DNA from: Lachnospiraceae bacterium AD3010
GTDB taxonomy: Bacteria > Bacillota > Clostridia > Lachnospirales > Lachnospiraceae
Direction of reading: 5' to 3'
DNA: 64,000 nucleotides
Assembly (NCBI GenBank): GCA_000622025.1
Contig: JHWU01000007.1
Coordinates: 81,049-145,048, forward strand
Positions 16,897 to 34,714 of this stretch are shown in pieces (position 1 is the stretch's first letter; the number at the start of each line of letters is the position of its first letter). The notes beneath the pieces were generated by a model, which was not told the origin of the DNA, did no database searches, and saw nothing but the letters and a program-made list of their open reading frames with translations. The position numbers and the translations under genes are program-made.

Positions 16897-16941
16897 ATGT
16901 ATTCCTTTTTAAGATTCTTCGGGCTTCGCCCTCAGAATGAC

Positions 16942-18720: not shown

Positions 18721-18723
18721 GTA

Positions 18724-20149: not shown

Positions 20150-20152
20150 ACC

Positions 20153-21766
20153 TTATTTCTCCCATTTGTCCGAAAGAGCATTTATCTGATCTGCAAATCG
20201 GGCAATATCCTTATTTGCACCATGCTCATATTTCTTTGCAACACCGAGAAGACGCTCTGCTGCAGACAAAAGCCTCTCAAATACCGTACTGATACGTGTG
20301 TGGATAATGGTCTTCTTCTGAACGGGAACTCCCTTTGTCTCAGCGATGAATTCCGCGTTTATCAGGTCGTATTTCGTCCCGCTGAAGGGTGCATAGGCGT
20401 CGTAGCCGTATTCCTTATGAAGAAGCTCTGCAAAGCTCTCCGTCACCCTGTCGTCGCCATGTACCACGAAAACCTTCTTTGTCTTTTCGGGATCGAAGCT
20501 TTTTCTTATCCAGTTTGTGAGACCGTTCCTGTCCGCATGCCCGCTCATCCCGGAAAGCATCTCTATATTGGCGTTCACGGAGATCTCTTCTCCAAAAAGC
20601 TTCACTGTCTTTGCCCCCTCTATTAGGGCACGCCCCAGAGTCCCAACTGACTGGTAACCTACGAAAAGTATCGTCGATTCCGCCCGCCAGAGATTATGCT
20701 TCAGGTGATGCCTTATCCGTCCGGCATCGCACATTCCTGAGGCAGAGATGATAACCTTCGGTTCGTCATCAAAATTGATGTTTTTTGAATCATCCGGTGT
20801 GATGGAAAGATTCAGATTCGTAAATGACAGGGGATTGATCCCCTTTTTTACAAGTGCGGTCGCTTCCTCGTCAAAGCACTCCATGGAGCTCTTTCCGAAG
20901 ATACTGGTTGCATCCACTGCAAGAGGGGAGTCAACATACACCGGAAAATCCTCAAATCCCCTTATAAGGCCTCTTTCCTTGATCTCCCTGATGAAATACA
21001 GAAGCTCCTGTGTCCTGCCTACCGCAAATGAGGGAATGACCACATTTCCTCCACGGTCAAAGGTAAACTGCAATATATCCACAAGCTCTTTGATGTAGTC
21101 GGGTTTTTCCTCCGAATGAAGCCTGTCACCGTAGGTGGATTCGGTAAGTACATAGTCCGCACCATCCACTGCCTCCGGATCCTTTATGATCGGCTGATCT
21201 ATGTTTCCCACGTCTCCCGAGAAAACTATCTTTTTTGATACCCCTTCCTCCGTTAGGAAGAGCTCGATAGCCGCAGATCCGAGGAGATGCCCCACATCCG
21301 TGAATCTTGCCTCTATCCCCTCATCTATATGTATCACTTCATTATAGCTTACGGGATTTAATAGCCTTATGGCACCGTCAGCATCCTCCATGGTATAGAG
21401 AGGCACAAAGGTCTCTATATTGGCGTTTCGTCTCGCTTTCCTGTTCCTCCACTCCGCTTCAAAGGTCTGTATATGCGCGCTGTCACGGAGCATGATATTA
21501 CATAGCTTCGCCGTGGCAGAGGTTGCGTATATCTTTCCGCGGAATCCCTTTTTATAGGCAAGAGGAAGAAGACCCGTATGGTCTATATGGGCATGGGTTA
21601 ATAGAATATAGTCGATATCAGAGGCCGGCACAGGAAGAGGCGCATTCTCGTACAGCTTCCTCCCCTGCTCCATACCGTAATCAACAAGGATGTGCTTCCC
21701 GTTCACATTGAGATAGTGGCAGCTTCCCGTAACCTCGTGGTCAGCTCCGATAAATTCAAGTATCAT
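20153..21766 (-). CDS. Metallo-beta-lactamase-fold beta-CASP ribonuclease (RNA-metabolising MBL, RNase J / CPSF-like family)
   Basis: HAHIDHTGLLP carries the HxHxDH motif, within ILEFIGADHEVTGSCHYL...HAHIDHTGLLPLAYKKGFRGKIYATSATAKL. Length is ~537 aa. The ORF track starts at GTG 21802, but ATG 21766 (MILEFIGA) is the more likely start. An A10 homopolymer lies between the two candidate starts. Confidence 0.7.
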   Translation of the reverse strand: MILEFIGADHEVTGSCHYLNVNGKHILVDYGMEQGRKLYENAPLPVPASDIDYILLTHAHIDHTGLLPLAYKKGFRGKIYATSATAKLCNIMLRDSAHIQTFEAEWRNRKARRNANIETFVPLYTMEDADGAIRLLNPVSYNEVIHIDEGIEARFTDVGHLLGSAAIELFLTEEGVSKKIVFSGDVGNIDQPIIKDPEAVDGADYVLTESTYGDRLHSEEKPDYIKELVDILQFTFDRGGNVVIPSFAVGRTQELLYFIREIKERGLIRGFEDFPVYVDSPLAVDATSIFGKSSMECFDEEATALVKKGINPLSFTNLNLSITPDDSKNINFDDEPKVIISASGMCDAGRIRHHLKHNLWRAESTILFVGYQSVGTLGRALIEGAKTVKLFGEEISVNANIEMLSGMSGHADRNGLTNWIRKSFDPEKTKKVFVVHGDDRVTESFAELLHKEYGYDAYAPFSGTKYDLINAEFIAETKGVPVQKKTIIHTRISTVFERLLSAAERLLGVAKKYEHGANKDIARFADQINALSDKWEK

Positions 21767-21899
21767 AGAAGCTATTATACTATCAGAAAAAAAAAATGTC
21801 ACCTATGAGCACCAATGCGGTATCATTATAACAATTGGCTTACAATATATGATCTTCAGTCATCATATGCGGGCAGAAGATCATTGTTGCCAATGGATA

Positions 21900-23909
21900 C
21901 TACTCCTCACGCTCTTTAATGAAATCCATATTATCTCTTTCAATATCGCTGAGCATTGTCTGTATATTAAAATCATCCGGATCAATTGTTCCGCTATACC
22001 AAGGCTTTGAATCAAAGTAAGCCTGTAACTCAGCATCCTGGAAACGACGTCCATGGCGGGCTACAATTTCATTTCTAGCTTTTCTTAGTTCATCATTTGA
22101 TAATCCTTCCAAGTCAGACTCGGTAAGATTCCTGCTTGAACTATATGGAAGAATATAATCATCATTATCATTAGTTATCGAAATTTCGTTCCCCTCATAT
22201 CCACTATATATTCCCCAATCCTCCAATTTCTGCTTAAACTCATTGTTGCCGACAGAAGTTCTAGAACACATGCTAACAGGTGTATCCTCTTTTATTTCTT
22301 CTCTTTCATCAAGCGATTTTCCAGTATACATGAAGTCTACTATAAAACCTGAGCTCCAAATTTCACAGTTTGGACAATATATTAAATTGTCATTTATTAT
22401 CGGGATATCAGTTTCGCCTATTTTGTCAGGAATTATTATACTCGCAGGCCCTTGGATAGCCACAACAATGTAATCCTTTTCATCAGAGAAATCTGGTTCC
22501 TCATGTTCTGGAGGTATCACTATTCCATATGCATAATCATATAATTTATCCTGTTCAAATCCAGATACTGCCACTAAAATTTCTGTATTATCAATTTTAT
22601 ACAATTGTTGATAACCATTATTATCTAAAGTAGTCTCATATGAAAGATCATATCCTAGTCGATTCAGATCTCCTATAGTTGTTCTATTAATTAAAATATC
22701 TCTATAAAAATCGGACGATACATCCTCGGAAATTGGCTGATCCGCTTTTTCTTTCAGTGAAAAACTAATCGTAATATCCGGCAAATATACTTCACTTTTT
22801 ACATCGCTTGTTTTCACTGACACATCTACGCCGGTATTATTCAAAACTATTTTACCTGATCCATGGTTATTCTCACTGTCATTAAAAGTAAAATCACTTC
22901 TACATCCATCAAATTTAATTGTTTCGCTGATGGTGCATTTTTTCCCTTCTTCATTCATAGCATATATTTCAATACTGCCATTGTCCTCATAGTGTTGTAG
23001 TTGAAAATATACACCATTTTCCTCATCATAATAATATCCTGAGTATTTTGCATAACATGTCTTAAGCAAAGCGGAACTATCTTTATAATCCCCCAATTCA
23101 GATAATTTTATAATTGCATCTGCATATTCACTGTTATCAATGTGTTTCAATGATTCAGAATAAAGCGCTTCTTTATCTTTCTGATCTGTCTCAGCTGCAT
23201 CCTCTTCACTTTTGTTAGTGGCTGCTATACCATCAGATAATTCATCTGTACTATTCCTCGGTTTTGCAACAAGATTCCATACTACAAGAGTTCCAACAAC
23301 AAGAATAATCAGCATAATGATCGAAATGACAATCACCAACACTCTCGTTTTGTTCTGCTGTTTATTCGATAGGATTTTGTAGTTCTGCTCTGTCTCTATT
23401 TTTCTTCCCAAAAATCTGGAAACAACTGAGATGAGATCCGATGAAGCACCTACCTGATCATATTTCAACGCTTGTATTGAATTAATTGCGGTCGGAATAT
23501 ATTTGGCATCCATTCCCAGATAAACAGGAATTATTTTTTTTGAACTTATATTTTTTTCATATCTTTCCCAAAGCTTTTCAAATGAATCTTTTGAGGTTCC
23601 AATAACCAATACAATTTTAGACACATTTAAGGCAGCCTCTTCAGTTACCTCTGCATCTCTTCCAGTAACATTTTCCAAAGATACTCTTTTATAAAACGCT
23701 TTGATTTTGTACTGCTCCAAAAGATTATATATTTCCTGGGCAATAACAGAATCCTTTGTTCTCCGTCCATTTTCATCACTTTCAGAATAGCAAATAAAAA
23801 CATCTACTTCTCCACAGAATTCCATCATGGAAAACTGACTTCCGCAGCTAGTACACGTCCATATTGAATTTTCAAATATTAGATCACCGCCACAGTTTTT
23901 ACACTTCAT
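21900..23909 (-). CDS. TIR-domain membrane protein: N-terminal zinc ribbon, TIR domain, single TM helix, extracellular region ending in a YARHG domain (paralog 3)
   Basis: Zinc ribbon CKNCGG...CTSCGS. TIR_2-like block VDVFICYSESDENGRRTKDSVIAQEIYNLLEQYKIKAFY...KIVLVIG. TM helix VLVIVISIIMLIILVVGTLVVW. Ectodomain carries a GDYKDS-type repeat and a C-terminal LSNDELRKARNEIVARHGRRFQDAELQAYFDSKPWY (YARHG motif). ATG at 23909 has GGAGG 7 nt upstream; the ORF-track start at 23927 lacks an RBS. Confidence 0.7.
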   Translation of the reverse strand: MKCKNCGGDLIFENSIWTCTSCGSQFSMMEFCGEVDVFICYSESDENGRRTKDSVIAQEIYNLLEQYKIKAFYKRVSLENVTGRDAEVTEEAALNVSKIVLVIGTSKDSFEKLWERYEKNISSKKIIPVYLGMDAKYIPTAINSIQALKYDQVGASSDLISVVSRFLGRKIETEQNYKILSNKQQNKTRVLVIVISIIMLIILVVGTLVVWNLVAKPRNSTDELSDGIAATNKSEEDAAETDQKDKEALYSESLKHIDNSEYADAIIKLSELGDYKDSSALLKTCYAKYSGYYYDEENGVYFQLQHYEDNGSIEIYAMNEEGKKCTISETIKFDGCRSDFTFNDSENNHGSGKIVLNNTGVDVSVKTSDVKSEVYLPDITISFSLKEKADQPISEDVSSDFYRDILINRTTIGDLNRLGYDLSYETTLDNNGYQQLYKIDNTEILVAVSGFEQDKLYDYAYGIVIPPEHEEPDFSDEKDYIVVAIQGPASIIIPDKIGETDIPIINDNLIYCPNCEIWSSGFIVDFMYTGKSLDEREEIKEDTPVSMCSRTSVGNNEFKQKLEDWGIYSGYEGNEISITNDNDDYILPYSSSRNLTESDLEGLSNDELRKARNEIVARHGRRFQDAELQAYFDSKPWYSGTIDPDDFNIQTMLSDIERDNMDFIKEREE

Positions 23910-23911
23910 GA

Positions 23912-26263
23912 TTAATCCTCCAGCCATACGTCTTTTACAGCTGTTTTCCCATCTGTTTCCGTGCCATCGCTTTTATAAATTGATCCGCTTTGTGAAATAC
24001 AGAATCCATCCTTTAGGTATATAGCACCTTCTAAGATCTTTATGTCACTTCCAAGTTTAGATAAGTTGTTTCTTGAATCTATGACATAAGCTGTATGATT
24101 CTCTGACCATAGGTCTTTAATGTTTTCCTTCTCAGAAATACTTCCATCATCAAAATTAAAAATATGCATTATGTCATTACTATCCAGTGCAGCAATATAA
24201 TATCTTGATATCTGAATATCTTTGATCTCAGATAATCCATCCAAAAAGGCTTCCATTTCTAAGCGATGATAGAATTCTTCTTCCGGATCTCCACTTGTAA
24301 AACCATTTATCTCATAATCAACATAATGAACTTTTCCAAAATTATCTAGACCTACTAAAACAGCTTTCGCAAGCGTCCCCGAACTATAAACACCTTTTTC
24401 ATCCCAGTCAATTTTTATTATGTTGCGCCAATTCTTGACAGGATTTAACCATTCATCGCTTGCAACGTTATCTTTTACTATTTCCCCAACAATAACTGAT
24501 CCATCATTTTTTAAGGCTACATTCGTAAAATTAAAACGGTCTGATATTTGGATTATATTCTCCCAGTCTTTATCTAATCCGTTAAGAACGGCCGAATTAC
24601 AAACAAATCCATCCTCATACAAAGCGTATAATCCAGGATAATTTGCTCCAATAGAAATAACCTTTCCATGACTATTAACATCAAGATCACCCTTTTTCGG
24701 ATATTCAACAAAGTCCCCGGAATCATCATAACCCAACTCAACATTGTTATTTCCTTTATCAAAGCCGAATGAATCGACTGAACCATTCCCATTTATATAA
24801 TATGACCCCGAAGGAGATCTTCCACCGTCAAAATCCGTAGTCAACGCAACTGTAGAAACACTTTCTCTCCACTTCTTTTCGCATTTTTCCAGCATTTCCT
24901 GAACTTCGGGATAGTCCCCGATCTTCTGTAATGCCCATGTCGCCTCTGCATATTTCCGATCATAATACAACTGCATGGCTGCATCATAATCAGCCTGATA
25001 GGTACATTTTACTGCCAGCTCCGCAGCGTCCTCATAACCCCCGATTCTGCCAAATATGGCCTTGGCCTCATCATATCGCCCGGAAGCAAACAGTTCCTGT
25101 GCCTCTTCATATCCTGCCTGATTGGATGTTTTTACAGACAACTCCGCCGCATCTTCATAATCTCCAAGTTCGTCATAAATAGCCTGTGCTTCTTCATATT
25201 TCCCGGCTGTATAAAGCTCCTGCGCCTTGGTATACTTCTTTTCATTTTCAGCCTGCTTCCGTGCCGGTATGGTTATCAGCAGAACAAGCGGAATTCCAAC
25301 CACTATCGCAACCAGCCCTGCGATCATAAGAGTCTTTCTGGTCTTTTTTCTCCGCTCTTTCAGGATTATCGGTGTGGGAATCAGTTTCTTTATGCCGCGG
25401 ATCAGCTCCTGTTCAAAATCCTCCGCCCCCATGTTCTGGGCAGAAAGAAGAGCGAACTCCTCCGGGAGCCCGCTTTCATCCATATCAAAATATACCGGGA
25501 TAAGTGTTTTTGACGTATCTTTCCTGCGGAGCGTCAGATATCTGCTCCATTCGTTCTTTACCCACGCAGATTGTATGTTCTCAGATGAAGAACATACTGT
25601 AATCATTACTTTGCTGGAAGAAAGAGCCGCATAGATATAAGGCTCGTACTCTTCGCCTATCTTGGACTCCAGAGTTATTCTGGAGAAGAATACCTTATAT
25701 CCAAGTTCTGTCAGTTTCTCGTATAATTTCTGGGCTTCTATACTATCCTTGGTACGGTTCCCGTTGGCATCAGTTTCCTTGTAAGATATGAAAACATCAA
25801 AGGGTTTCTCTCTCTTTGACACTTCAAGAATCCCTTTCTGAATATTTTCAATGATCCCGGCATCCCGCTTATATAATTCTGCCTTATCTCCCACAGATAG
25901 TTCCAGCGCCCGAAGATAATTCTCATCCTTCAGCACGGAATCCGTGTGTGTCCTGTTACAGGTCGGGATGTACCGACCAGTCTGGGGATCCTTTGCATAT
26001 GTCACGCCATACTTACAAAGCACAAGATCCCAGTATATCTCTGCATCATTAGGATTAACAGAAAGCAACTGGCTGAAAATACCTTCTGCCTTGTCATATT
26101 CATTATGAAGAAGATACTGATTTCCACGTTCATACAGCGCTTTTGAGCTATCATCCCCGAAGAGTGGAAGCGTCTGCTTTGTTCCGCAGTAGTCGCAGAC
26201 TGCGATGCGAGTCTTCTGATCAATAGTTAAACTACCGGCACAGATCTTGCATTTATACTCCAT
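23912..26263 (-). CDS. TIR-domain membrane protein: zinc ribbon, TPR-like region, TIR domain, TM helix, extracellular helical repeats plus beta-rich domain (paralog 2)
   Basis: 783 aa. Zinc ribbon CKICAGS...CDYCGT. TIR block PFDVFISYKETDANGNRTKDSIEAQKLYEKLTELGYKVFFSRITLES...VMITVCSSSENIQSAWVKNEWSRY. TM helix TLMIAGLVAIVVGIPLVLLITI. Three ~35-aa repeats (GKYEEAQAIYDELGDYEDAAEL). C-terminal beta-rich region. Confidence 0.7.
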   Translation of the reverse strand: MEYKCKICAGSLTIDQKTRIAVCDYCGTKQTLPLFGDDSSKALYERGNQYLLHNEYDKAEGIFSQLLSVNPNDAEIYWDLVLCKYGVTYAKDPQTGRYIPTCNRTHTDSVLKDENYLRALELSVGDKAELYKRDAGIIENIQKGILEVSKREKPFDVFISYKETDANGNRTKDSIEAQKLYEKLTELGYKVFFSRITLESKIGEEYEPYIYAALSSSKVMITVCSSSENIQSAWVKNEWSRYLTLRRKDTSKTLIPVYFDMDESGLPEEFALLSAQNMGAEDFEQELIRGIKKLIPTPIILKERRKKTRKTLMIAGLVAIVVGIPLVLLITIPARKQAENEKKYTKAQELYTAGKYEEAQAIYDELGDYEDAAELSVKTSNQAGYEEAQELFASGRYDEAKAIFGRIGGYEDAAELAVKCTYQADYDAAMQLYYDRKYAEATWALQKIGDYPEVQEMLEKCEKKWRESVSTVALTTDFDGGRSPSGSYYINGNGSVDSFGFDKGNNNVELGYDDSGDFVEYPKKGDLDVNSHGKVISIGANYPGLYALYEDGFVCNSAVLNGLDKDWENIIQISDRFNFTNVALKNDGSVIVGEIVKDNVASDEWLNPVKNWRNIIKIDWDEKGVYSSGTLAKAVLVGLDNFGKVHYVDYEINGFTSGDPEEEFYHRLEMEAFLDGLSEIKDIQISRYYIAALDSNDIMHIFNFDDGSISEKENIKDLWSENHTAYVIDSRNNLSKLGSDIKILEGAIYLKDGFCISQSGSIYKSDGTETDGKTAVKDVWLED

Positions 26264-26588
26264 AATTCCCCCATAAATTCAGTTTAATGATATTAATTAT
26301 TACTTCCAATCAAAGGTTTTTGTATCAACCAATTGTCCATCTGGATCATATAACCTAGCAGCGACTGTTAGACTTGGTGCTTTACTAGGCGTATCCCAAC
26401 TCCTGTTATACCACCAATAACTATAACCATCCGTTGACCTACTAACTACAACTTCCATTCTTTTGTTTGGTTCTCCTTTTCAAGTATAGCTTTCTCTCTA
26501 CTATTCCTCTCCAATATCCACCACAAAGGCTTATTGGCAAAATGACGCATTTTCTCAAACAAACAGTTTCAATTCAACAGATACCGCA

Positions 26589-28619
26589 TCAATGGAAGAA
26601 TTCACCTCCCCAATTTAGCATTCGTACATTATTCACCGTAACATAATACTCTTGCTTCGGTTCTTTTAAGCTGAGAATAGTCTTCGCTGCCTCATTATTT
26701 ACAGCATAATAAGAGTACTTATTATTTCCGCTAAATGCGTATCCATTTCGTGTATATATTATTTTATTATTATCTGAATAACTGATCCATTTCTCTCCCA
26801 GACTTTCTATCCTGTTTATTATTTTAAGGTATTGGTTGTTTGATAAATAGTAATCAATGTGATTAAAATCACCCATTTCCAATACTCTATCGTATAAATT
26901 GCTTAAATTATCACCTTCCTGAACATTCTCAAGTTGATACATAATATCGCAAAATTCCTGATATTTTTCATCTCCAGGTATTTCTTTGTAATAGGAATAT
27001 GCAACGTCATATTTTCGTGCATCCATAAGCTCTTTGGCATATGGCTCAATATATTGCGGATCCTTTTCCAGCAGTCCAATATCCTTAAATAAATCCAGTG
27101 CTTCAGTATATTCTTCTTTCTTAAACAGATTATCAGCTCGTTCGATACTATCCTCATTAATTTTTTCCTTACTGTTTTCAATAAGATCATTTATGTTTTT
27201 ATATCCTTCTATTTCTTCGGCAGCAGTCAAAAACGATTCATAATCACCTTTTTCATATAACTCTAGAGCACTTTTGTATTTTGAATTTAAAGATATTTCC
27301 TTTGCAACAAGAGAAGCTCCGTATCCCAGCATAATCAATACGAAAATTAGAATCACACAAACCAAAAAAAGCCTAGTCCTTTTTACTGCTATTTTCCTGC
27401 TTTCATCCTTTTTTTTTCGATAAATACTAACCTGTTTCTTGAGCAACTCTATATCTTCATTGCTGCCAAATCTGATAGCATTAATATACGAACTATTCTT
27501 ATCGAACGGTGTATTCTACTTTCCCAGTTCATCGATACTTTTCACATTAAGCTCGGCACATAGCTTCATAATGTATGTATTTGAATCTTCCGGAATTAAA
27601 TCTAATACTTTGTCACAATAAGATTTTGCATTTGCAAAATCACCATTATCTATAAAAACTTCAATTCTTTTCTTTAATGCTGCAACATCTATGTTACTCC
27701 GTAAATATTGGGAGGATTGTATTACCGGGTTAATAATCTTATATATTCCTCTAATCAAGTCCTGCATGCTCCCGAGTTTTCCCATATCTAAAGCCTGCAT
27801 ATATGAGAACTCATCCGGTAAATCATAAGGATCCATATCTTTGTATGCAGGAATAAGTGTTTTATTTTCACCGGAATTAATGAGTCCGATATATCTTGAC
27901 CATTCATTTTTTACCCAAGCGGCATTAAAATATTCTACCTTGGTCCCAACGACTATCATAATTTTTGCGGAATTAAGTGCAGCAAAGATATATGGCTCAT
28001 ATTCACTTCCCAGTTTGTCCTCCAATGATATTCGGGAAAAGAAAACTTTATATCCCTCACGTGTAAGCTCATTATAAATTTCCTGGGCTATTACACTGTC
28101 TACTGTTCTCTTTCCGTAATCATCTGTTTCCTTATAACAGATGAAGATGTCATAAGGCTCCTCTTTATTTGATATATCAAGTATATTTTTTTGGATATTA
28201 TCAATGATTCTTGCTTCTGACTCTATGACATCACATTGTTCAGGTGACGTGTATTTAATGGCTAATTTATAATTATGATCATCAAAAACAGATTGGAGTT
28301 GTGTCCTGTTTACTGTAGGAATTCTTTTTTTTGTTCTAGGATCTTCAACATACTCTATTCCATACCGGCATAACACCAGATCCCAATACACTTCTGCATC
28401 AGTATCATCTTCTAGCAACACCTGTTCATATAACGCGGCTGCCTTGTCGAAATCACTTATTCTACGGTAATGATCTGCCCTGTCATAGAGACTCGCTTTA
28501 CGCTCACTTGTCATTCTAGGAAGAATCTGCTTTGTACCGCAATATAAGCAGGTTGCAGTACCTTCACCATTAGGTTCCAAATCCCCACCACAGATTTTAC
28601 ATTTTAAAATTCCTTCCAT
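26589..28619 (-). pseudogene. Third ZnR-TPR-TIR-TM-ectodomain paralog interrupted by one in-frame amber codon (TAG at 27516-27518); possibly expressed as a soluble ZnR-TPR-TIR fragment of 367 aa
   Basis: ORFs 27516..28619 and 26589..27446 are in the same frame (72 nt apart). The 24 intervening codons read without another stop (NTPFDKNSSYINAIRFGSNEDIE). The upstream part contains zinc ribbon CKICGG...CLYCGT and TIR block PYDIFICYKETDDYGKRTVDSVIAQEIYNELTREGYKVFFSRISLED...AAWVKNEWSRY. The downstream part begins with TM helix LFLVCVILIFVLIMLGYGASLVA followed by ectodomain repeats. The fused architecture matches the two intact neighbours. Confidence 0.6.
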
Positions 28620-28648
28620 AGCAACCTCTAAAAGATGTCTTCCAGTGA

Positions 28649-29590
28649 TTATTGATCAGTTATTGATCTTTCTATGCTTTTTTGAATATCGTCCACAGCA
28701 TCATAATAGAACTTTTCATATAATTGGCTCTTTTCGGAATCATTACTATCAATTCTATATCCCAGAGTTCTTACTTCAGCGCCATAACATCTTAAAAGAT
28801 CGTGCTTTCTATCCGCATTATCTGTCTGCGGTTCATAGAAGAACAGCTTTCCATGGGAAGCTTTCTCTCTATTTTTCCTCTCCAAAAGCCACCACAGATC
28901 CATTTCTGCAAAATCGTATCCAAATCCCAGAACATAAATATCGTTCATAATAAAAGCATCTACCCAGGATCTGATGGATGCCTCTTTATTGTTTACTTCA
29001 CTCCACTTATACCGGGCACCTGATTTTTGCAGATATGATTTAATCTTAAATAACAGGTTGCCGTAATAATAATGCCCTATAACCATACTACTGGAATTTT
29101 TGCAATGACCATGTATGTGCCAGATTCTTTTATCCATGCCATCATTGGAAATCTTTTGAAATGTGTGCAAGAAAATATTAGCTTCTTTTCTGGTAATACC
29201 AATCCCTCGGATATAATCAGAAATAGAATTCACCCTTGAAGAAGATATTCTTTCTCCAATGATATGATTGGCTGCCTCTTCAAGTTCAAATCCATAGTTT
29301 ACTGTCAATATATCCTCCACAGGCAAGGATATTAGCTTCCCATAGTACTCCGCCTGCTTTTTTTGTGTTAGGCATCCCCATATCTCAGTGGCAGATTTCT
29401 TCATGGCATTATGAACATCATTATTAGTACCCAGAACTATTTTCAACGTAAATGGGATATCATCTGATTCTGATATCATCTGATTTCCCTTTGATGACTG
29501 CTTAAGTAAATTATCGAGTGAAATAGATCCTTTATCAAAAGACCGATTGATTCCATTCCCTATCAGTATTGATGATTTATACATACCCAT
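28649..29590 (-). CDS. Standalone SIR2-like (SIR2_2 family) putative NAD+-consuming enzyme, no SLOG or other sensor domain
   Basis: 313 aa. The motif order matches the ThsA-type SIR2 domain. ILIGNGINRSF aligns with the GAG motif. TVNYGFE aligns with TTNYD. IWHIHGH aligns with KMHGD. VLGFGYDFAEMDLWWLL aligns with FVGFSFTDPNLDYIL. The gene lies 29 nt upstream of the TIR paralog array. One base appears to be missing from the printed line at 29581, so coordinates follow the ORF track. Confidence 0.6.
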   Translation of the reverse strand: MGMYKSSILIGNGINRSFDKGSISLDNLLKQSSKGNQMISESDDIPFTLKIVLGTNNDVHNAMKKSATEIWGCLTQKKQAEYYGKLISLPVEDILTVNYGFELEEAANHIIGERISSSRVNSISDYIRGIGITRKEANIFLHTFQKISNDGMDKRIWHIHGHCKNSSSMVIGHYYYGNLLFKIKSYLQKSGARYKWSEVNNKEASIRSWVDAFIMNDIYVLGFGYDFAEMDLWWLLERKNREKASHGKLFFYEPQTDNADRKHDLLRCYGAEVRTLGYRIDSNDSEKSQLYEKFYYDAVDDIQKSIERSITDQ

Positions 29591-29616
29591 TCCTCATACT
29601 GCCAAAGATTCTGTTT

Positions 29617-31389
29617 TTATTCGAGGTTTATCCATATAGCAGGTCTTACTCCTTTATCCCTTACATGGATATCCCCGGTGCTTTCGACATTTGCGTCAGG
29701 CGTTGCGTACTTAAAGCCCTTTCTTGCTTCATCCCGGAGCCACCAGTCAGAATCACAGGACAAATCTGTTCCTTTTGACTTCAGCGCTTTTACTTCACCA
29801 TCTGATAACAGGGAAATCTTCAGTCCATCAGTATCTATGATCTGATTCAGATCCTTTTCTGTGAATTCATTCAGGAAGTCACCGTTGAGCCACTTGCATA
29901 TATCTGAATCCTCAAATGAAGTGTCAGTTATATCATCGCTTACCGGCAGATCCCTCATAGGCTTGTCGGCCAGAAGATGCATCTTCTCATATCCGACCAT
30001 TTCAATTATCCGCCAAGCAATGGGCTCCCCGTTATATGTTCCAAGATACAGTATCTTATCCGAGGACTGTCTGTTGAATATTTCCACAAGTCTTTCCCGG
30101 GAATCTTTATATGGGGTTACCTCAAAATACAATCCTGTTGCAGTTTCATAGTCACCCTTCGCATAAGCTTCCTCTGCAGCAGTATACTTCTGTTCGCAGA
30201 TAATAGCCCGAATCTCCTCGATCTTGTCATTACTATCTTTATATCCGTCAAGAGCTTCAAACGCTGAGATAGCCTCATCATATTTCTCTTCATTCATAAG
30301 CTGCATTGCGGCATCATATGCCTTTTCCTTAATAAGCATCTTTATTTCTTCTATCTTCTGGGGACTGTCAGAAAAATCTCCCAGTTCTTCAAAAGCTGCT
30401 ATCGCCGCATCATACTCGCCGGCTTCCATAAGCTTCATGGCTTCATCATATGCAGCCTGCTTTATTATGGTATGGATTTCCTCTATCTTATCTTCACTAT
30501 CCTTATATCCACCCAATTCTTCGAACTTTTCTATGGCAGAGTCATAATCCTCATTCTTCATGAATTCACAGGCTTTCTTGTATTCCATTTCTGGAGCCAC
30601 AAAAAATACAATGGCCAGGACTGCAATAATAAGCCCAAGGGAAATAAGAATCCCTGCAACAGCAAATTTATTTCCGGCACCGGGCTTCGCATCAACAGCA
30701 GGATCCTTAACCCTTTTAAGTGTCTTGCACTGATTATTCCTGTTTTTCATGAGATCCGATATTTCATCACAAAGTGTGACAGCGTTCTGCGGATCCCCGG
30801 CACTGTCCTTCAGGGCCATGGTTTTATTCAGAATCTCTTTTTCAATACCTTCTAGCTGGGAATGGCTCATGGGATCGCTGTATGTTATGTCCTCAATAAG
30901 CCTCTGAATCTTTTTCTTAAGCTCAGCGTCTTCTGTTTTGATCGTCTGCAGTTCGTTCTTTAGCGTATCCTTAAACAGGACTTTTTTAACGACCTGCTCA
31001 TCGTTTTCACCGATCTTTGATGTGAATGCTGATATAATCAATACAAGGAACGTATATGCTATAGCAATCCCAAGATTTACTACGAGAGCGGTTTCATAGG
31101 GAAGGAACCCGGATGTAATCTCCTTATATGAGTATGCAAGCTGCGCAACAAAGAACAGCCAGGATAGCACAACCACCGGAATATTCAGGAACTGTTCTTC
31201 TTTTGTCCTTTTGCTGAAAAATTTGAAGATGGATACGAACATAACGATCAGGGCGTACCCCCCGAACAGATATGCCATCCAGAACACCAGCGTCTTCTCC
31301 TGTGGAAGTAAGAATGATGCTATGGAAAACGCTGTAAAAGAAATAATGGCGATCAGCAGACTGATCCCCTGCCCTTTGTTAAGCTTCAT
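29617..31389 (-). CDS. Multi-pass membrane protein with cytoplasmic coiled-coil and extracellular GDYKDS-type helical repeats plus a C-terminal beta domain
   Basis: 590 aa. Four N-terminal TM helices, a fifth TM (FAVAGILISLGLIIAVLAIVFFV) and three ectodomain repeats (EDYDSAIEKFEELGGYKDSEDKIEEI; GEYDAAIAAFEELGDFSDSPQKIEEI; EKYDEAISAFEALDGYKDSNDKIEEI). These are the same repeat type as in the TIR paralog ectodomains. It sits 26 nt upstream of the SIR2 gene. Confidence 0.55.
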   Translation of the reverse strand: MKLNKGQGISLLIAIISFTAFSIASFLLPQEKTLVFWMAYLFGGYALIVMFVSIFKFFSKRTKEEQFLNIPVVVLSWLFFVAQLAYSYKEITSGFLPYETALVVNLGIAIAYTFLVLIISAFTSKIGENDEQVVKKVLFKDTLKNELQTIKTEDAELKKKIQRLIEDITYSDPMSHSQLEGIEKEILNKTMALKDSAGDPQNAVTLCDEISDLMKNRNNQCKTLKRVKDPAVDAKPGAGNKFAVAGILISLGLIIAVLAIVFFVAPEMEYKKACEFMKNEDYDSAIEKFEELGGYKDSEDKIEEIHTIIKQAAYDEAMKLMEAGEYDAAIAAFEELGDFSDSPQKIEEIKMLIKEKAYDAAMQLMNEEKYDEAISAFEALDGYKDSNDKIEEIRAIICEQKYTAAEEAYAKGDYETATGLYFEVTPYKDSRERLVEIFNRQSSDKILYLGTYNGEPIAWRIIEMVGYEKMHLLADKPMRDLPVSDDITDTSFEDSDICKWLNGDFLNEFTEKDLNQIIDTDGLKISLLSDGEVKALKSKGTDLSCDSDWWLRDEARKGFKYATPDANVESTGDIHVRDKGVRPAIWINLE

Positions 31390-31414
31390 ACCTCGACCCC
31401 TCCTGTTTCAAATA

Positions 31415-32587
31415 TTATTTCAACATATCCTTCATAAGTTCTGCTTTTGCTGCCGCGAACTCTTCATCTGATAACATGTTCATTTCCTGCATCATTTTCA
31501 GTTTTTCCAGTTTTTTCTTAAAATCATCAACCGACTGATCCGCAGGCTGTGCCCCGTCTGATGAATTAATGCTGTCTATGGTCTCATTCATCATTCCCCC
31601 GACCATGCCGCCAACAGTTCCTCCGACTCCGGCCATCATGCCCAGACCTATTCCCATGTTGGTAAACTCTCCGGAAGCCTCATTTTCGGCAATCTTTTCA
31701 GCCACATCGAAGCCTCTTTCCTGTTGATAGGTATATCCTTCCTGCTGCCGTTTCGTAGCCAGTGCCTGTGATTCTATCACGGTCTTCTTTGCTTCAGTCT
31801 CAGCATCAATAACCTCTGTCTTCTGACGTAGCTGCGCCTCCGCAATATCAGAGTACTGTCTAACATGGATTTCCTTATACTTCTCATATGCTGTGTCCCC
31901 AACAGGCTTGGCGATATTCGTAACCATGAATTTCTGCAGGGTTATACCATAATCGTCAAAGTCCGGGGTGAGCTTATTGAACAGGTTATCTGAGAACTCA
32001 TCCATATGGGAGTCCACTTCAAATATGGAATAATCCGCAGACTGCATGGAATTTGCAATATAGGGCTTTATCTTTGAATTAAGGATAGAACGGAATTTCT
32101 GAACCAGCGCATCCTGTGTCAGATTCTTTTCCGTTCCCACAACTTTAACGACCAGCCTTCTGGAATCGTTAACCGAGAGGATCATTTCTCCGGATAACCC
32201 TATCTGCAGAGGGAAATTATACTTCGGATCCATGTACTGAACCTGCGAGTCAGTTCCCCAGCGGATAGCCATGTGGCTGGTCATACTTATGAAATATACC
32301 TCACAATGGAAAGGACTCTTTCCGCCGGTAGGTATGTTTATCAGTTCTTTTAATATCGGGATATTGTTGGTGCTCAGGGTATACCGCCCTGCCGGGAAGA
32401 GATCGAGCGCCTGCCCGTCCTTAAAGAACAGAGCCTCCTGATTCTCGTGAACTATCAGCTGACTCAGTGTGTTAAAGTCTTCCTTGGGATGTTTCCAAAC
32501 AAAGTTGTTGTTATTCCCCTCATATTTGATTACAGATGTGATACCATCTATATTCAGCACATTCGGAATTATACTTGATAATGCCAT
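31415..32587 (-). CDS. SPFH (band-7)-domain protein with C-terminal SHOCT domain, B. subtilis YdjI-like
   Basis: 390 aa. N-terminal block FVWKHPKEDF...ALFFKDGQALDLFPAGRYTLSTNNIPILKEL...FHCEVYFISMTSHMAIRWGT matches the YdjI-type SPFH pattern. Gly/Met-rich linker GIGLGMMAGVGGTVGGMVGGMM. C-terminal SHOCT-like LEKLKMMQEMNMLSDEEFAAAKAELM. GGGGG RBS 8 nt before the ATG. Confidence 0.65.
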   Translation of the reverse strand: MALSSIIPNVLNIDGITSVIKYEGNNNNFVWKHPKEDFNTLSQLIVHENQEALFFKDGQALDLFPAGRYTLSTNNIPILKELINIPTGGKSPFHCEVYFISMTSHMAIRWGTDSQVQYMDPKYNFPLQIGLSGEMILSVNDSRRLVVKVVGTEKNLTQDALVQKFRSILNSKIKPYIANSMQSADYSIFEVDSHMDEFSDNLFNKLTPDFDDYGITLQKFMVTNIAKPVGDTAYEKYKEIHVRQYSDIAEAQLRQKTEVIDAETEAKKTVIESQALATKRQQEGYTYQQERGFDVAEKIAENEASGEFTNMGIGLGMMAGVGGTVGGMVGGMMNETIDSINSSDGAQPADQSVDDFKKKLEKLKMMQEMNMLSDEEFAAAKAELMKDMLK

Positions 32588-32730
32588 TGATCAACCCCCG
32601 TATAATTACTGTTGTTTCAAAAAGCAGACTTTCTGAAACAGGAGATTTATAATAAAAAGGCCGTAAATCATTGACATTCTTTTAGATTTTTTAGTGTTTC
32701 TTATTGTCTACATTCCAAAACAGGATGATC

Positions 32731-33345
32731 TTACTGTCGTATTTTCTGATGTAATATTAGTTCTTTACATCTTCGATAAAAGGTGGTGTGTGACATTTCA
32801 GCGAAATCAGCAGCTTCTCTTGATGAAAGTTCCCCTGAGACCCACCTGTTGTACGCGTCCATAAACTGATCTGTCTCATTAGTCCTTGGTCTTCCAAACC
32901 GTATACCGCGAATCTTTGCTGCGGTAATCCCCTCTTTTTGACGCTGTTTGATCATCACACGCTCTGTCTCAGCAACATATGCCAATATCTGCAATACTAG
33001 ATCTGAAATAAATCTGCCAGTCAGTCCTTCCTTACCGGTATTGGTATTCAAGAGCGGCATATCCAGTACTTCAATATCTGCGCCCTTTTCTTTTGTAATA
33101 ATTTCCCATTGTTTCAGTATCTCTCCATAGTTTCTTCCAAGCCGATCAATACTTTTTATCACAATACAGTCCTTATTTTTAATTCTTTTTAGCAACTGCT
33201 TGTATTGTGGGCGGTTAAAATCTTTTCCGGATTCAAAATCTATGAAAATTGATGACCTGTTTATTCCCCTTTCTACCAATGCATCTAACTGCCTGTCCGG
33301 CTTCTGATCTTTTGAAGAGATTCTCACATACCCATAAATACTCAT
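32731..33345 (-). CDS. Small serine recombinase (resolvase/invertase family)
   Basis: 204 aa. MSIYGYVRISSKDQ carries the catalytic Ser motif GYxRVSxxxQ, followed by IVIKSIDRLGRN and a C-terminal HTH (MSHTTFYRRCKEL). Confidence 0.85.
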   Translation of the reverse strand: MSIYGYVRISSKDQKPDRQLDALVERGINRSSIFIDFESGKDFNRPQYKQLLKRIKNKDCIVIKSIDRLGRNYGEILKQWEIITKEKGADIEVLDMPLLNTNTGKEGLTGRFISDLVLQILAYVAETERVMIKQRQKEGITAAKIRGIRFGRPRTNETDQFMDAYNRWVSGELSSREAADFAEMSHTTFYRRCKELILHQKIRQ

Positions 33346-33405
33346 CTTTCCCTGCCTCCTTTATGTTTTTAAAAACAATAAATCGGGCAATAAGAAACAC
33401 AATTT

Positions 33406-33428
33406 AATGTACTTAATTTAAGTACATT
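33406..33428. promoter_or_regulatory. Perfect 23-bp palindrome AATGTACTTAAtTTAAGTACATT plus a third half-site (33458-33468); candidate recombinase res/crossover site or RHH operator
   Basis: Read directly from the sequence between the recombinase start (33345) and the RHH ORF start (33491). The half-site AATGTACTTAA is repeated 30 nt downstream. Confidence 0.45.
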
Positions 33429-33490
33429 TTAAACATAATATCACATTCGGAACTTAGAATGTACTTAAATTGAACTTTTGAGATTATTAT

Positions 33491-33652
33491 ATGAATAAAC
33501 GGGAAAAAGATAAGCATTTGGGATTACGTATTGATTCGGAAATGCACAAAAAATTAAAAGAAATGGCTGAATATGAAGGTCGCTCCATTAATGGTGAAGT
33601 TCTTTATCTGATACGTCAGGCTATCAAGGAATTTGAAAAAACAGTAGAATGA
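33491..33652 (+). CDS. Arc/MetJ-type ribbon-helix-helix (RHH) DNA-binding protein, 53 aa, below the ORF-track length cutoff
   Basis: The ATG..TGA frame encodes MNKREKDKHLGLRIDSEMHKKLKEMAEYEGRSINGEVLYLIRQAIKEFEKTVE. The beta-strand LGLRID followed by two helices, and the RSINGEVLY motif, are typical of Arc/CopG RHH proteins. It is divergent from the recombinase and flanks the palindrome. The RBS is weak. Confidence 0.5.
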   Translation: MNKREKDKHLGLRIDSEMHKKLKEMAEYEGRSINGEVLYLIRQAIKEFEKTVE

Positions 33653-33744
33653 ATGTCTGTGATCGTAGGCTAGAGCGCAATCGATGGTTTTGTGCACGTA
33701 AATTCACAGCTTAGGTCTACACAGGCGTTAAAAAATGTAACAAG

Positions 33745-33790
33745 AAAACAGCTGCCATCATATGATGGTCATATGGAGATTGCCGCAGCT
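33745..33790 (-). terminator. Rho-independent terminator of the PD-(D/E)xK gene
   Basis: Immediately after the TAA stop (33791-33793), the minus strand has stem AGCTGC...GCAGCT enclosing palindrome CCATCATATGATGG, followed by TGTTTTCTTGTT. Confidence 0.45.
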
Positions 33791-34714
33791 TTATTTCTTT
33801 ATCAGCCCTTCATATAAAGAACGCTGAGACTGTGGGATTTTTAGAGAATCCATTGCTTTCTCAACATTAACCCCAAAGGAATCCATAACATTTCTTATTG
33901 CCCTAATTAGCGTTTCCTGTTCCTTTTCATTTACCTTTTCATTTACCTTTTCATCTACCCGGTCCTTCATGATTTCCATCAATATATCACCAGCCATATC
34001 ATTTCTCCTTATCTCCTCAAAGATCTGAGGGTTCTTCACTGCCAATAGTTCTATCAGAACTCTGTAATGATCCCTTAAACTGTCTGTCCTTTCTTTATCT
34101 GCGAATACTATTACCCGTTCCACATCTTCTTCAGCAGCTTTATCCGTTAAGGCCCTGTATGCTGCGTATTCCTCGCCCTGAAGCTCCCCCGTGATAATGA
34201 TCTGAAAAGGGATGTCCGTTATTCCTTTTACAAGATAGATTCCCGGTGCATCCCCTTTGATGAGATTCCCGGATCTCTCCATTGTCTTAAAGAGCTTCGG
34301 ATTCTTCACCGCGCGGAAGATGGATATCGTTACATCGTCTGCCTTAATATCTCCCTCATGTTCTGCGATTCCGATATATAGATACGCATAAGCAGCTATC
34401 TTTCGGATTACCCGTTCATTCAAAGAATCATGGGGATTCTTATATTCAAGAATGTTATGCTTATGGAAGATCTTGAAAATGTCCTTATCAAATTCAACCT
34501 TTTCATCTTCGATAAGCACCACGTAGTCCGCCCTTGGCGGTTCTTCTCCCAGAACTTCTTCTGTCAGCAAACGGATACTGTTTCCGTATTTATAGGTCTC
34601 TATCCTTAGAAGGGCTTCAAACCCTGTATGCCAGTCACTGCGGGGTGTAGCCAGAAGTTCCTTTAAGGCCGCCCGGTGAAAGGCTATTTTCTCTTTTCGT
34701 TCCTTATCTGTCAT
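33791..34714 (-). CDS. Putative PD-(D/E)xK nuclease of the Rpn/YhgA-like (transposase_31) recombination-promoting family
   Basis: 307 aa. PD-(D/E)xK-like motifs ADYVVLIEDE and ILEYKNP sit in the N-terminal half, with a helical C-terminal region. Assignment is by motif only. Confidence 0.4.
   Translation of the reverse strand: MTDKERKEKIAFHRAALKELLATPRSDWHTGFEALLRIETYKYGNSIRLLTEEVLGEEPPRADYVVLIEDEKVEFDKDIFKIFHKHNILEYKNPHDSLNERVIRKIAAYAYLYIGIAEHEGDIKADDVTISIFRAVKNPKLFKTMERSGNLIKGDAPGIYLVKGITDIPFQIIITGELQGEEYAAYRALTDKAAEEDVERVIVFADKERTDSLRDHYRVLIELLAVKNPQIFEEIRRNDMAGDILMEIMKDRVDEKVNEKVNEKEQETLIRAIRNVMDSFGVNVEKAMDSLKIPQSQRSLYEGLIKK

Follow-up and report, generated by a model that had tools for sequence, protein, structure and literature searches.

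A conserved SPFH-TIR operon in Clostridia encoding predicted type II membrane proteins with exchangeable ectodomains

Animal Toll-like and IL-1 receptors cross the membrane once, their TIR domain facing the cytoplasm and a binding domain built of repeats facing outward. By the type I definition, a Toll-like receptor (TLR) runs from N-terminal leucine-rich repeats (LRRs) through a TM helix to a C-terminal TIR, and it signals by TIR-TIR contacts that recruit adaptor proteins. The known enzymatic TIR defence systems, such as Thoeris ThsB, AbTir, TIR-STING and TIR-SAVED, are instead cytosolic and sense intracellular cues or nucleotides; they have a TIR_2-type domain with the Glu of a WxxxE motif. 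For membrane complexes with an SPFH protein, the nearest case is PspA-YdjGHI (SamGHI) of Bacillus subtilis, in which membrane recruitment of the soluble SPFH protein YdjI requires the membrane proteins YdjG and YdjH (PMC8581546; bioRxiv 10.64898/2026.02.06.704340), and the printed ydjG primer encodes MIISYKCPNC, which is a CxxC start (PMC8581546). Finally, the C. difficile RecV switches (cwpV, flgB) and Salmonella Hin exemplify promoter segments that are inverted by a recombinase.

Here we analysed a 64,000-nt stretch (the window) of Lachnospiraceae bacterium AD3010, in which an initial annotation had recognised three paralogous genes at positions 21,900 to 28,619, here called A, B and C, and had read them as analogs of Toll-like receptors with diversifying ectodomains. 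The three genes are the distal part of a conserved operon and not free-standing receptors, and the larger unit reaches ~33.9 kb. The first gene of the operon (31415..32587, minus strand) encodes an SPFH protein of the Band_7_1 family (PF13421; Pfam E 5.9e-40, 137.6 bits), to which YdjI presumably also belongs; the protein is soluble, has no TM helix and carries a C-terminal SHOCT domain. It is followed by mem (29617..31389, minus strand), whose product has 4 TM helices, a conserved cytosolic helical domain with the motif YSDPMSHSxL...RNxxCKxLK, a fifth TM helix and a predicted outer part made of four GDYKDS repeats and DUF6273. Between mem and the TIR genes an AbiH/SIR2_2-like accessory gene is inserted (28649..29590, minus strand), which has a weak SIR2_2 match of 23 bits and homologues with precomputed PF14253 (AbiH) and PF13289 assignments.

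The order of SPFH/Band_7_1 gene, 4-TM gene and then at least one gene for a zinc ribbon (ZnR)-TPR-TIR-TM-ectodomain protein was seen in 50 of 76 species loci, and it is kept across unrelated chromosomal neighbourhoods. An SPFH gene is found in 53 of the 76 loci and SPFH together with mem in 50, adjoining in 49 and all 50 on a single strand; among the 23 loci lacking SPFH, 16 are situated at locus ends, and in seven loci with TIR-TM genes the SPFH gene is missing from stretches of 4 kb or more to either side. The island has a GC content of 0.35-0.43 vs ~0.46 in the flanks, and recombinase genes adjoin the cassette. No conserved downstream effector and no adaptor-like gene were found in the operon, nor a PspA-like gene in the cassette. 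No published account of an SPFH-TIR-receptor operon was found in the literature searched, and these operons of gut Clostridia are apparently a large and undescribed group.

Genes A (21900-23909), B (23912-26263) and C (26589-28619) all lie on the minus strand and have in common a zinc ribbon, a TIR domain and one strong TM helix. The N-terminal CxxC...CxxC ascribed to every paralog is present in all three ORFs (CKNC..CTSC in A, CKIC..CDYC in B, CKIC..CLYC in C), and the TPR-like segment ascribed to two of them is seen as Pfam TPR matches in B and C, e.g. TPR_14 at 30.6 and 25.4 bits. A TIR domain had been assigned to all three; with TIR_2 (PF13676) membership defined by a profile score that reaches the gathering threshold of 28 bits, this holds for B (53.2 bits) and C (46.2 bits), whereas A, at 27.1 bits, is degenerate and slightly under the threshold, yet the A family matches the B family in profile-profile comparison (hhalign probability 99.94, E 4.9e-37). 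The heads align as clear paralogues (TIR identity 57% for B vs C and 34% for A vs B), while the ectodomains are essentially unrelated (15-26% identity), so that the proposed relationship of the three genes stands.

The topology was assessed by a Kyte-Doolittle and charge scan, together with the Pfam domains that follow the TM helix. A, B and C each contain a single strongly hydrophobic 19-mer (Kyte-Doolittle 2.9-3.35), which bears out the single TM helix claimed for each, save that in gene C a TAG codon precedes it. On the N-terminal side of the helix the three window proteins have a surplus of K+R (4 vs 2, 7 vs 4 and 8 vs 3), and the scan gave no signal-like N-terminal segment in any of them. 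With one TM helix, a positive-inside bias and C-terminal domains of extracellular type, the family is predicted to be single-pass N-in/C-out (type II) membrane proteins, in agreement with the earlier assignment of a cytoplasmic ZnR-(TPR)-TIR head and an outside C-terminal part.

In gene B (23912..26263, minus strand, 783 aa), the zinc ribbon (~26174-26257) is followed by the TPR and a conserved Cys-containing linker (~25814-26152), the TIR domain (~25379-25801) and the TM helix (~25274-25330). The ectodomain consists of three helical repeats of GDYxD type (~24854-25258) followed by a predicted beta-propeller resembling RCC1 and BamB (23915-24853). The AF2 model of the ectodomain (pLDDT 90.6) places the helical repeats before the propeller, and thereby gives shape to the helical repeats of GDYKDS type plus beta-rich domain originally described. 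RCC1, Prp20 and BamB are the top Foldseek matches of the propeller, with probability 1.0 but TM-scores of only ~0.3, and a Pfam RCC1 match is missing in B of the window, though other family members match RCC1_2. Within the TIR, the Glu of AWVKNEW in B and C aligns with the WxxxE-motif Glu of flax L6 (SKWCLMEL) and AbTIR (WTNYEL), which we take to be the catalytic residues of those proteins. The putative catalytic residue of B is thereby Glu238 (25550-25552, minus strand), and W234, V235, N237, E238 and W239 show no change in 31 homologues. Matches of the window TIR to L6, TLR2/15 and AbTIR are weak, with E from 6e-4 to 1.4e-2. We infer from this single conserved residue, the WxxxE Glu of helix alphaC, that B and C fit an enzymatic TIR of the NADase type.

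Besides such a Glu in a TIR_2-type domain, the locus shares with enzymatic TIR defence a mobile low-GC island, and with Thoeris loci that have several ThsB genes the tandem TIR paralogues. It would be conceivable that membrane TIRs make a cADPR-type signal for a separate effector, here possibly the AbiH/SIR2_2-like neighbour, as the kept catalytic-type Glu, the weak similarity to Thoeris type III ThcB4 and TIR retron proteins, and the position of a SIR2_2/AbiH-family gene between mem and the TIR genes would suggest. We hold this to be improbable, however: the AbiH-like gene is not conserved at its position in the cassette, where other loci have nothing or an unrelated gene (290 aa in L005), and no signal-binding domain, whether SLOG, Macro or another, can be recognised in its product. 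Thoeris pairs a TIR protein (ThsB) with a ThsA effector of SIR2-SLOG or TM-Macro type; here the match to the NCBIfam Thoeris model ThcB4 reaches 24.6 bits against a cut-off of 220 and no PADLOC Thoeris model was matched, so the locus was not classed as Thoeris. PADLOC and NCBIfam recognised no known defence system at all, giving only sub-threshold matches at the TIR level (among them PDC-S66, 32 bits). Unlike the cytosolic systems, the TIR here is tethered to a TM helix and predicted extracellular domains, and in place of a linkage to ThsA, STING, SAVED or CBASS there is one to the SPFH and 4-TM genes.

Gene A (21900..23909, minus strand) encodes 669 aa from MKCKNC, within an ORF that extends to 23927. 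Its start is most likely at 23909, since the 24 aligned A homologues begin with MKCKNC and a GGAGG lies 9 nt upstream; a start at 23927 is disfavoured on the same grounds. The zinc ribbon (~23835-23909), the degenerate TIR-like domain (~23415-23804) and the TM helix (~23280-23336) are followed by the ectodomain (21903-23279), in which a single GDYKDS repeat is joined to an up-and-down beta-barrel of 8 strands, an alpha/beta domain and YARHG (~21906-22160). The combination of a repeat and YARHG had already been read from the sequence, and the Pfam search confirms YARHG (PF13308) at the C-terminus, at residues 590-674 in the numbering of the 675-aa ORF, with 85.9 bits vs a cut-off of 27 and E 1.8e-24. 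In an alignment of 25 A-type sequences, the column of the catalytic Glu holds E, G, K, S or R (Glu in A of the window itself) and is followed by an 8-residue deletion, by which the A-family TIR is degenerate and has no conserved catalytic Glu. The stop codon of B and the start of A are 2 nt apart and the RBS of A lies within B; an A-type partner occurs in 29 of the 76 species loci, and four loci (L035, L037, L038, L042) carry a duplicated B-A pair. B and A are a conserved pair and are probably coupled in translation, an arrangement which recalls the heterodimeric receptor/co-receptor pairs among TLR and IL-1 receptors.

Gene C (26589..28619, minus strand) is an extra paralogue, and the other conserved cassettes have no gene at its position. 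It had been taken as one receptor ORF, but it is broken by an in-frame TAG (27516-27518), which separates the product of the head ORF (27516-28619, 367 aa, ZnR-TPR-TIR-TPR) from the part with the TM helix (~27315-27371). The post-stop part, in the same frame down to 26589, continues with degenerate helical repeats and, in correction of an ectodomain described as helical repeats only, a short tail that is beta-rich by composition. All 16 aligned homologues read through the TAG column, mostly with Cys. The TAG recurs in only one other assembly, L001, which matches the window at 100% identity over 17.1 kb and hence provides no independent confirmation. In this strain, gene C may yield a soluble untethered head only, or may be a pseudogene.

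These results bear on the original proposal when it is read as one of three stand-alone, independently acting TLR-like receptors, which diversify by ectodomain shuffling and need no neighbours. Paralogous heads with unrelated ectodomains, a modular family and the seven SPFH-free loci are in its favour; we nevertheless regard it as quite unlikely in view of the SPFH-mem-TIR order in 50 of 76 species loci, of B and A being an obligate pair in their own subfamily with an A family devoid of a conserved catalytic Glu, of gene C being broken ahead of its TM helix, and of all three lying 3' of SPFH and mem.

At the level of the family, a conserved, predicted cytoplasmic head of zinc ribbon, TPR, Cys-containing linker and TIR is joined via one TM helix to exchangeable, predicted extracellular binding domains, and the family is very large in Clostridia. 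Clustered at 50% identity, the head module forms about 3,700 groups (3685 representatives at E<=1e-30); among the 150 matches listed, proteins that span 311-1978 aa, it always occupies residues ~1-300. Of 156 TIR-head ORFs from 87 loci, 144 have a strong TM helix behind the TIR. The post-TM domains in 64 other family members include DUF6273 (27), RCC1 (8), BspA LRR_5/LRR_8 (4), Listeria-Bacteroides repeats (3), SH3_3 (2) and Lipocalin_3 (2), and in the 31 homologues of B the identity is 76% for the TIR vs 38% for the propeller; the notion of a conserved TIR head with varied ectodomains is thus well founded. With regard to an immune reading, BspA LRR, SH3_3 and Listeria-Bacteroides repeats are just as characteristic of adhesins and of proteins that bind the wall.

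The likeness to eukaryotic TLRs, which had been called a topological mirror, stands insofar as both have the TIR inside and a candidate sensor outside, and as two family members (P0174, P0175) are TIR-TM-LRR proteins; it is an analogy of layout only, the N-to-C order being different. The TIR here is N-terminal (type II), the LRRs are BspA-type, DUF6273 and RCC1 propellers make up most ectodomains, an enzyme-type Glu is retained in the B TIR, the operon has no adaptor proteins, and the N-terminal zinc ribbon and TPR as well as the SPFH and 4-TM partners are without TLR counterpart. By the type I definition none of the window proteins is a Toll-like receptor, as the order is reversed and the Pfam profile search gave no LRR in A, B or C.

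As for expression, the operon in many relatives is, judging by sequence comparison, preceded by a recombinase-driven invertible promoter. In 14 related loci, an inverted repeat (IR) of 17-29 nt with the core ACATAATNNNNATTATGT surrounds a promoter segment of about 210-260 bp, with a spacer of 208-256 bp, directly 5' of the SPFH gene, an equally high score being reached by 1 of 136 control windows; in most loci the promoter has an extended -10. A tyrosine recombinase gene lies beside the IR in 13 of the 14, the remaining locus (L024) being at a contig end. The homologous inner segment and its promoter point toward the operon in L005 and away from it in L014, L015/16, L021 and L022, with local alignment scores between L005 and the flipped loci of 160-214 reversed vs 22-31 forward, and since the segment occurs in both orientations when genomes are compared, it is read as an inverton. 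Short IRs around a promoter segment next to a tyrosine recombinase, with both orientations in related genomes, liken these loci to the RecV and Hin switches, whereas an SPFH and TIR-receptor operon is a new cargo.

We tentatively propose, at somewhat less than an even chance, that the operon encodes a phase-variable, SPFH-scaffolded, outside-in TIR receptor complex, which would probably set off NAD+ cleavage. Like YdjI in B. subtilis, which depends on YdjG and YdjH, the soluble SPFH protein would be drawn to the membrane by its partners there and would arrange the receptors. On the outside, the ectodomains would bind a ligand, be it a phage particle, another cell or a structure of wall or glycan, and alter the clustering of the receptors, upon which B-type TIR domains could meet, with A as a non-catalytic co-receptor. 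The assembled TIRs might then cleave NAD+, leading through depletion or a nucleotide signal to growth arrest or abortive defence, and phase variation would make the system less costly and less exposed at the surface.

Surface structures are classically under inverton control, and it is possible, if rather doubtful, that the genes form a module of envelope organisation, stress or adhesion, namely a YdjGHI/Psp-like complex of SPFH, 4-TM and ZnR-TM proteins whose ectodomains anchor to the wall or bind host or dietary glycans, whose TIR is mainly an oligomerisation scaffold or has a housekeeping nucleotide role, and whose phase variation is antigenic or adhesive. Ectodomains of adhesin or wall-binding type (LRR_5, Flg_new, SH3_3, YARHG, and discoidin in P0143) argue for such a module, as does the failure of PADLOC and NCBIfam to recognise a defence system. 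The Band_7_1 SPFH protein lacks a TM helix, as does YdjI, which is recruited by the CxxC-initiated YdjG and by YdjH (PMC8581546); both modules combine a gene for a soluble SPFH protein with genes for membrane proteins, and the ZnR-TM proteins start with CxxC as YdjG does. The cassette differs in having no PspA-like gene, and in ZnR-TM proteins that bear TPR-TIR heads and large variable ectodomains. Further against the module are the islands of low GC flanked by recombinase genes, into which an AbiH-like gene is inserted here, and the WxxxE Glu, which with its neighbours is invariant in B-type heads (TIR 76% identical on average) and would be unneeded by a pure scaffold. The SPFH parallel in itself favours envelope-stress biology over immunity.

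The window differs from its relatives in that the tyrosine-type IR is absent and a serine recombinase gene of invertase size (32731..33345, minus strand, 204 aa; Pfam Resolvase E 2.2e-27) adjoins the cassette, which among the fetched loci is the case only here. No clear promoter was seen within the IR-flanked segment of the window, nor a flipped copy of this segment. Like hin, the small recombinase gene is enclosed by inverted sites, which are only 10-13 nt long here. CAATAAGAAA is present three times within 32694..33903, its orientation alternating (32697-32706 minus, 33388-33397 plus, 33891-33900 minus), and the first and second copies make up a perfect inverted repeat of 13 nt (GTGTTTCTTATTG / CAATAAGAAACAC) around the recombinase gene. 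The 10-mer CAATAAGAAA occurs 3 times in the 64 kb, always at the recombinase, and 0 of 100 shuffles reach 3, which is suggestive of candidate inversion sites.

Between 21.9 and 28.6 kb the minus strand carries three head-to-tail open reading frames, hereafter A, B and C, with gene B at 23912-26263, the head ORF of gene C at 27516-28619, and gene A within an ORF of 21900-23927 whose likeliest start is 23909. All three proteins open with a CxxC...CxxC zinc ribbon (ZnR), and the Pfam model TIR_2 scores 53 bits in B and 46 bits in C, both over the cut-off of 28, and marginally below it in A (27.1 bits), with TPR matches found in B and C. A hydrophobicity scan gave each protein one strong transmembrane (TM) segment and no more, and no signal-like N-terminus in any of them; Lys and Arg are commoner on the N-terminal side of that segment. 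These three features agree and fit an N-in/C-out topology, in which a ZnR-(TPR)-TIR head would be cytoplasmic and the part after the TM helix would form an ectodomain. In alignment the zinc ribbon and the TIR domain are clearly homologous among the three, with TIR identities of 57% for B against C and 34-40% for A against either, and the C-terminal halves are essentially unrelated. The initial annotation had described three paralogous ZnR-TIR-TM proteins, a description which holds for the homologous heads, the single TM helices and the predicted orientation, but not for the integrity of gene C, which is cut by a TAG.

This in-frame TAG, at 27516-27518, splits off a soluble 367-aa ZnR-TPR-TIR-TPR product, and past it the frame runs on into an ORF at 26589-27446 which encodes the TM helix and the ectodomain of C and has no good start. 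When aligned with 16 family members, all of which read through, the TAG column is mostly Cys. Since the stop comes before the TM helix, C would be either a pseudogene or the source of a soluble, untethered head, and an intact receptor is ruled out. The sole other assembly with this TAG is L001, a public Logan contig (SRR3501123) matching 16912-34034, which shows no difference from the window across 17 kb (100% identity) and hence gives no independent confirmation of the TAG and is uninformative on inversion. In the 326-bp gap between the tail of gene C and gene B there is a 52-aa ORF (MEVVVSRSTDGYSYWWYNRSWDTPSKAPSL...; 26300-26458, minus strand), which may be a remnant of another ectodomain. 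As for gene A, its start is almost certainly the MKCKNC at 23909, which lies two bases past the TAA of B, has a GGAGG nine bases upstream, and occupies a start position common to 24 aligned A homologues.

The TIR domains of the A and B families differ around the site where catalysis would be expected. The segment 'SAWVKNEW' of B was aligned with flax L6 ('SKWCLMEL') and AbTIR ('WTNYEL'), whose aligned Glu residues are catalytic, and on this alignment Glu238 of B falls where NADases have their catalytic Glu; 31 B homologues share W234, V235, N237, E238 and W239 without exception. The A family is, by profile comparison with the B family (hhalign probability 99.94, E 4.9e-37), a true TIR relative. 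However, 8 residues are deleted in it directly after the catalytic-Glu column, and the column itself holds E, G, K, S or R among 25 sequences. A is best regarded as a degenerate TIR, probably without catalysis. Two more invariant Cys, residues 83 and 102 of B, were noted in the TPR-TIR linker ('YWDLVLCKYGV...YIPTCNRT', window ~25958-26017), a highly conserved stretch matched by no Pfam model; they could form a second metal site or a redox-sensitive element.

Regarding the ectodomains, the YARHG domain previously assigned to one of them was recovered by profile search at the C-terminal end of A (Pfam, E 1.8e-24), and fold searches with the A ectodomain returned generic 8-stranded calycin/avidin-like barrels only, with no functional relative. 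The AlphaFold model of the B ectodomain (pLDDT 90.6) shows stacked GDYxD helical repeats followed by a beta-propeller, and its closest solved structures are RCC1, Prp20 and BamB. Database relatives of B number more than 8,000, a lower bound, many of them full length at 43-66% identity. A query with the 300-residue head alone, run against 1.84 billion representatives, matched 3,685 of them at E<=1e-30, which puts the family at ~3,700 clusters at 50% identity. Among the 150 matches listed the head is always N-terminal, in proteins of 311-1978 aa, and a strong TM helix follows the TIR domain in 144 of 156 head-bearing ORFs. Two peptide patterns located relatives in 391 species genomes, all from gut or rumen taxa, which comprise Clostridia-type groups, Solobacterium and Anaeroplasmataceae.

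What follows the TM helix varies greatly. Mean identity across B homologues is 76% in the TIR domain and 67% in the N-terminal part, and falls to 46% in the repeats and 38% in the propeller. The post-TM domains in 64 other members include DUF6273 (27), RCC1 repeats (8), BspA-type LRR_5/LRR_8 (4), Listeria-Bacteroides repeats (3), SH3_3 (2) and Lipocalin_3 (2), and relatives of A can end in discoidin (the homologue P0143) or Cys-rich ribbons (locus L005) in place of YARHG. The proteins P0174 and P0175 are literal ZnR-TPR-TIR-TM-LRR chains with BspA-type LRRs. The idea of the initial annotation, in which the signalling head in the cytoplasm is conserved and the domains outside are shuffled, is well supported. 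The TIR-head ORFs of three of the loci fetched for comparison (L050, L052 and L064) reach ~1,700 aa.

The TIR genes are not free-standing but belong to an operon. In the contexts of diverse B homologues the gene order is constant across unrelated chromosomal neighbourhoods (hut, trk, pan, folD-cinA): a small recombinase; a soluble SPFH/Band_7_1 protein, often with SHOCT; mem, a protein with 4 TM helices, whose cytosolic helical domain is conserved and which may or may not have its own ectodomain; an optional, variable accessory gene; then B and A. The window has exactly this order on the minus strand, with SPFH at 31415-32587, mem at 29617-31389, an accessory gene of ~311 aa at 28649-29590 and the extra gene C between the accessory gene and B-A. 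In our HMM survey of 76 species loci, SPFH occurs in 53, and 16 of the 23 without it are truncated by the locus end; 50 loci have both SPFH and mem, in every case running in the same direction as the TIR genes, and in 49 of these the two are neighbours. At least two TIR-head genes are present in 51 of the 76 loci, and an A-type partner in 29, every one in the closer subfamily. Since order and direction are kept across loci, the unit is, on this comparative ground, an operon of SPFH, the 4-TM protein and then one or more TIR receptors. Four loci (L035, L037, L038 and L042) have the B-A pair in tandem (B-A-B-A) downstream of a single SPFH-mem pair, which suggests receptor-pair expansion.

Homologues of the accessory gene are annotated AbiH (PF14253) and SIR2_2 (PF13289), and a sequence search against PDB gave no match. 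It is not conserved at this position elsewhere, an unrelated 290-aa gene or PF27257 (HI_0787_N) genes being found instead. The GC content at 22000-34000 is 0.35-0.43 versus ~0.46 in the flanks, which is consistent with a horizontally acquired island; a beta-CASP RNase gene (20153-21802) bounds the low-GC region on one side and a CarD-like gene (34943-35446) on the other.

Expression of the operon appears to be switchable in related loci. Directly upstream of the SPFH gene, 14 loci (L004, L005, L007, L010, L011, L014-L016, L021-L025 and L041) have an inverted repeat of 17-29 nt with the core ACATAATNNNNATTATGT around a segment of 208-256 bp, and only 1 of 136 equal-size control windows scored as high. 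A 280-aa tyrosine recombinase gene lies beside the repeat in 13 of the 14; the remaining one, L024, is at a contig end. A promoter lies within the segment, and most loci show an extended -10 in it (e.g. TTGAAT...TGATATAAT); it points toward the operon in L005 and away from it in L014, L015/16, L021 and L022, where the homologous segment is flipped: local alignment scores 160-214 reversed versus 22-31 forward. An inverton has this signature; the differing orientations were observed between genomes, not inside one population.

For the cassette proteins no system-level match was found in PADLOC, NCBIfam or PHROGs, only weak TIR-level ones, and Thoeris or any other PADLOC or NCBIfam system was rejected with matches far below the cut-offs. 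The full-text literature searched holds no description of the family, the operon, the SPFH link or the family's inverton. We rate the cassette, as judged from its genes, a bacterial TIR system in a new form that is transmembrane, SPFH-associated and phase-variable. The earlier likening to a mirrored TLR stands in part: TLR and IL-1R have the same layout, with the sensor outside, TIR inside and heteromeric pairs. The chain here runs in the opposite order, its TIR is an enzymatic-type one, and there are no adaptors; membership in the TLR family is rejected.

SPFH proteins assemble on membranes, and the role of such scaffolds in bacteria is poorly understood. Enzymatic TIR domains are active only on oligomerisation, as in SARM1, AbTir and TIR-STING/SAVED filaments; ligands that cluster the ectodomains would thus bring the B-type TIRs together, A serving as a co-receptor without catalysis, and so set off NAD+ cleavage. 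In B. subtilis the membrane proteins YdjG and YdjH recruit the soluble SPFH protein YdjI/SamI (PMC8581546; bioRxiv 10.64898/2026.02.06.704340), and MIISYKCPNC, the sequence encoded by the ydjG primer in PMC8581546, has a CxxC start as do the ZnR proteins here. By analogy with YdjGHI, the task of organising the TIR receptors would fall to SPFH and mem. The same parallel, together with the adhesin-like ectodomains, also suits the main rival, an envelope-organisation or adhesion complex in which TIR is mainly structural; the strict conservation of the catalytic-type motif counts against this rival. If the receptors do signal, direct NAD+ depletion is more likely than a Thoeris-like relay, because no conserved downstream effector was found in the cassette. 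A costly role in surface surveillance or abortive defence agrees with the mobile low-GC island, with the AbiH-like insert, with phase variation and with paralogues that stand in tandem and diversify. We put forward, quite tentatively, that gut Clostridia have a widespread, phase-variable surface surveillance, in which SPFH-corralled heteromeric transmembrane TIR receptors (active B, pseudo-enzyme A) with swappable ectodomains, including LRRs, sense extracellular threats or ligands and respond by cleaving NAD+ in the cytoplasm.

To our knowledge, characterised bacterial TIR systems sense intracellular events. If the surveillance reading is true, a TIR domain joined across the membrane to varied binding domains on the outside would be the first case of receptor-type TIR signalling in bacteria, an outside-in pathway that would make up a defence or signalling class of its own; the TLR layout would then either have been invented here independently or be present in a form resembling its ancestor. 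Human and animal gut Clostridia commonly carry the family, which has no functional annotation and is linked to an SPFH scaffold. Inverton control suggests a part for the system in shaping gut interactions between phage and bacterium or host and bacterium, and it offers a direct experimental handle, as locked-ON and locked-OFF strains can be compared.

The window itself lacks the tyrosine-type repeat (CATAATNNNNATTATG), the one 1-mismatch match, inside gene B, being consistent with chance. Upstream of the operon there is instead a 204-aa serine recombinase gene (32731-33345), flanked by the two arms of a perfect inverted repeat of 13 nt. The 10-mer CAATAAGAAA has three copies in the 64-kb window, all within 32697-33900 and alternating in orientation, a number reached in 0 of 100 shuffles; L001 ends ~130 nt past the third copy, at 34034. 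A Hin-like switch at 32694-33903, made of serine recombinase and inverted sites, is a plausible candidate. Beside other cassettes this recombinase was searched for and found only in the window's own locus. Lastly, a near-perfect 18-nt palindromic pair (AATTTAAGTACATTTTAA / TTAGAATGTACTTAAATT; 33415-33471) with a 21-nt spacer adjoins a 53-aa HicB/Arc-like gene (33491-33652, plus strand) divergent from the recombinase, which looks like an operator with a small repressor or antitoxin.
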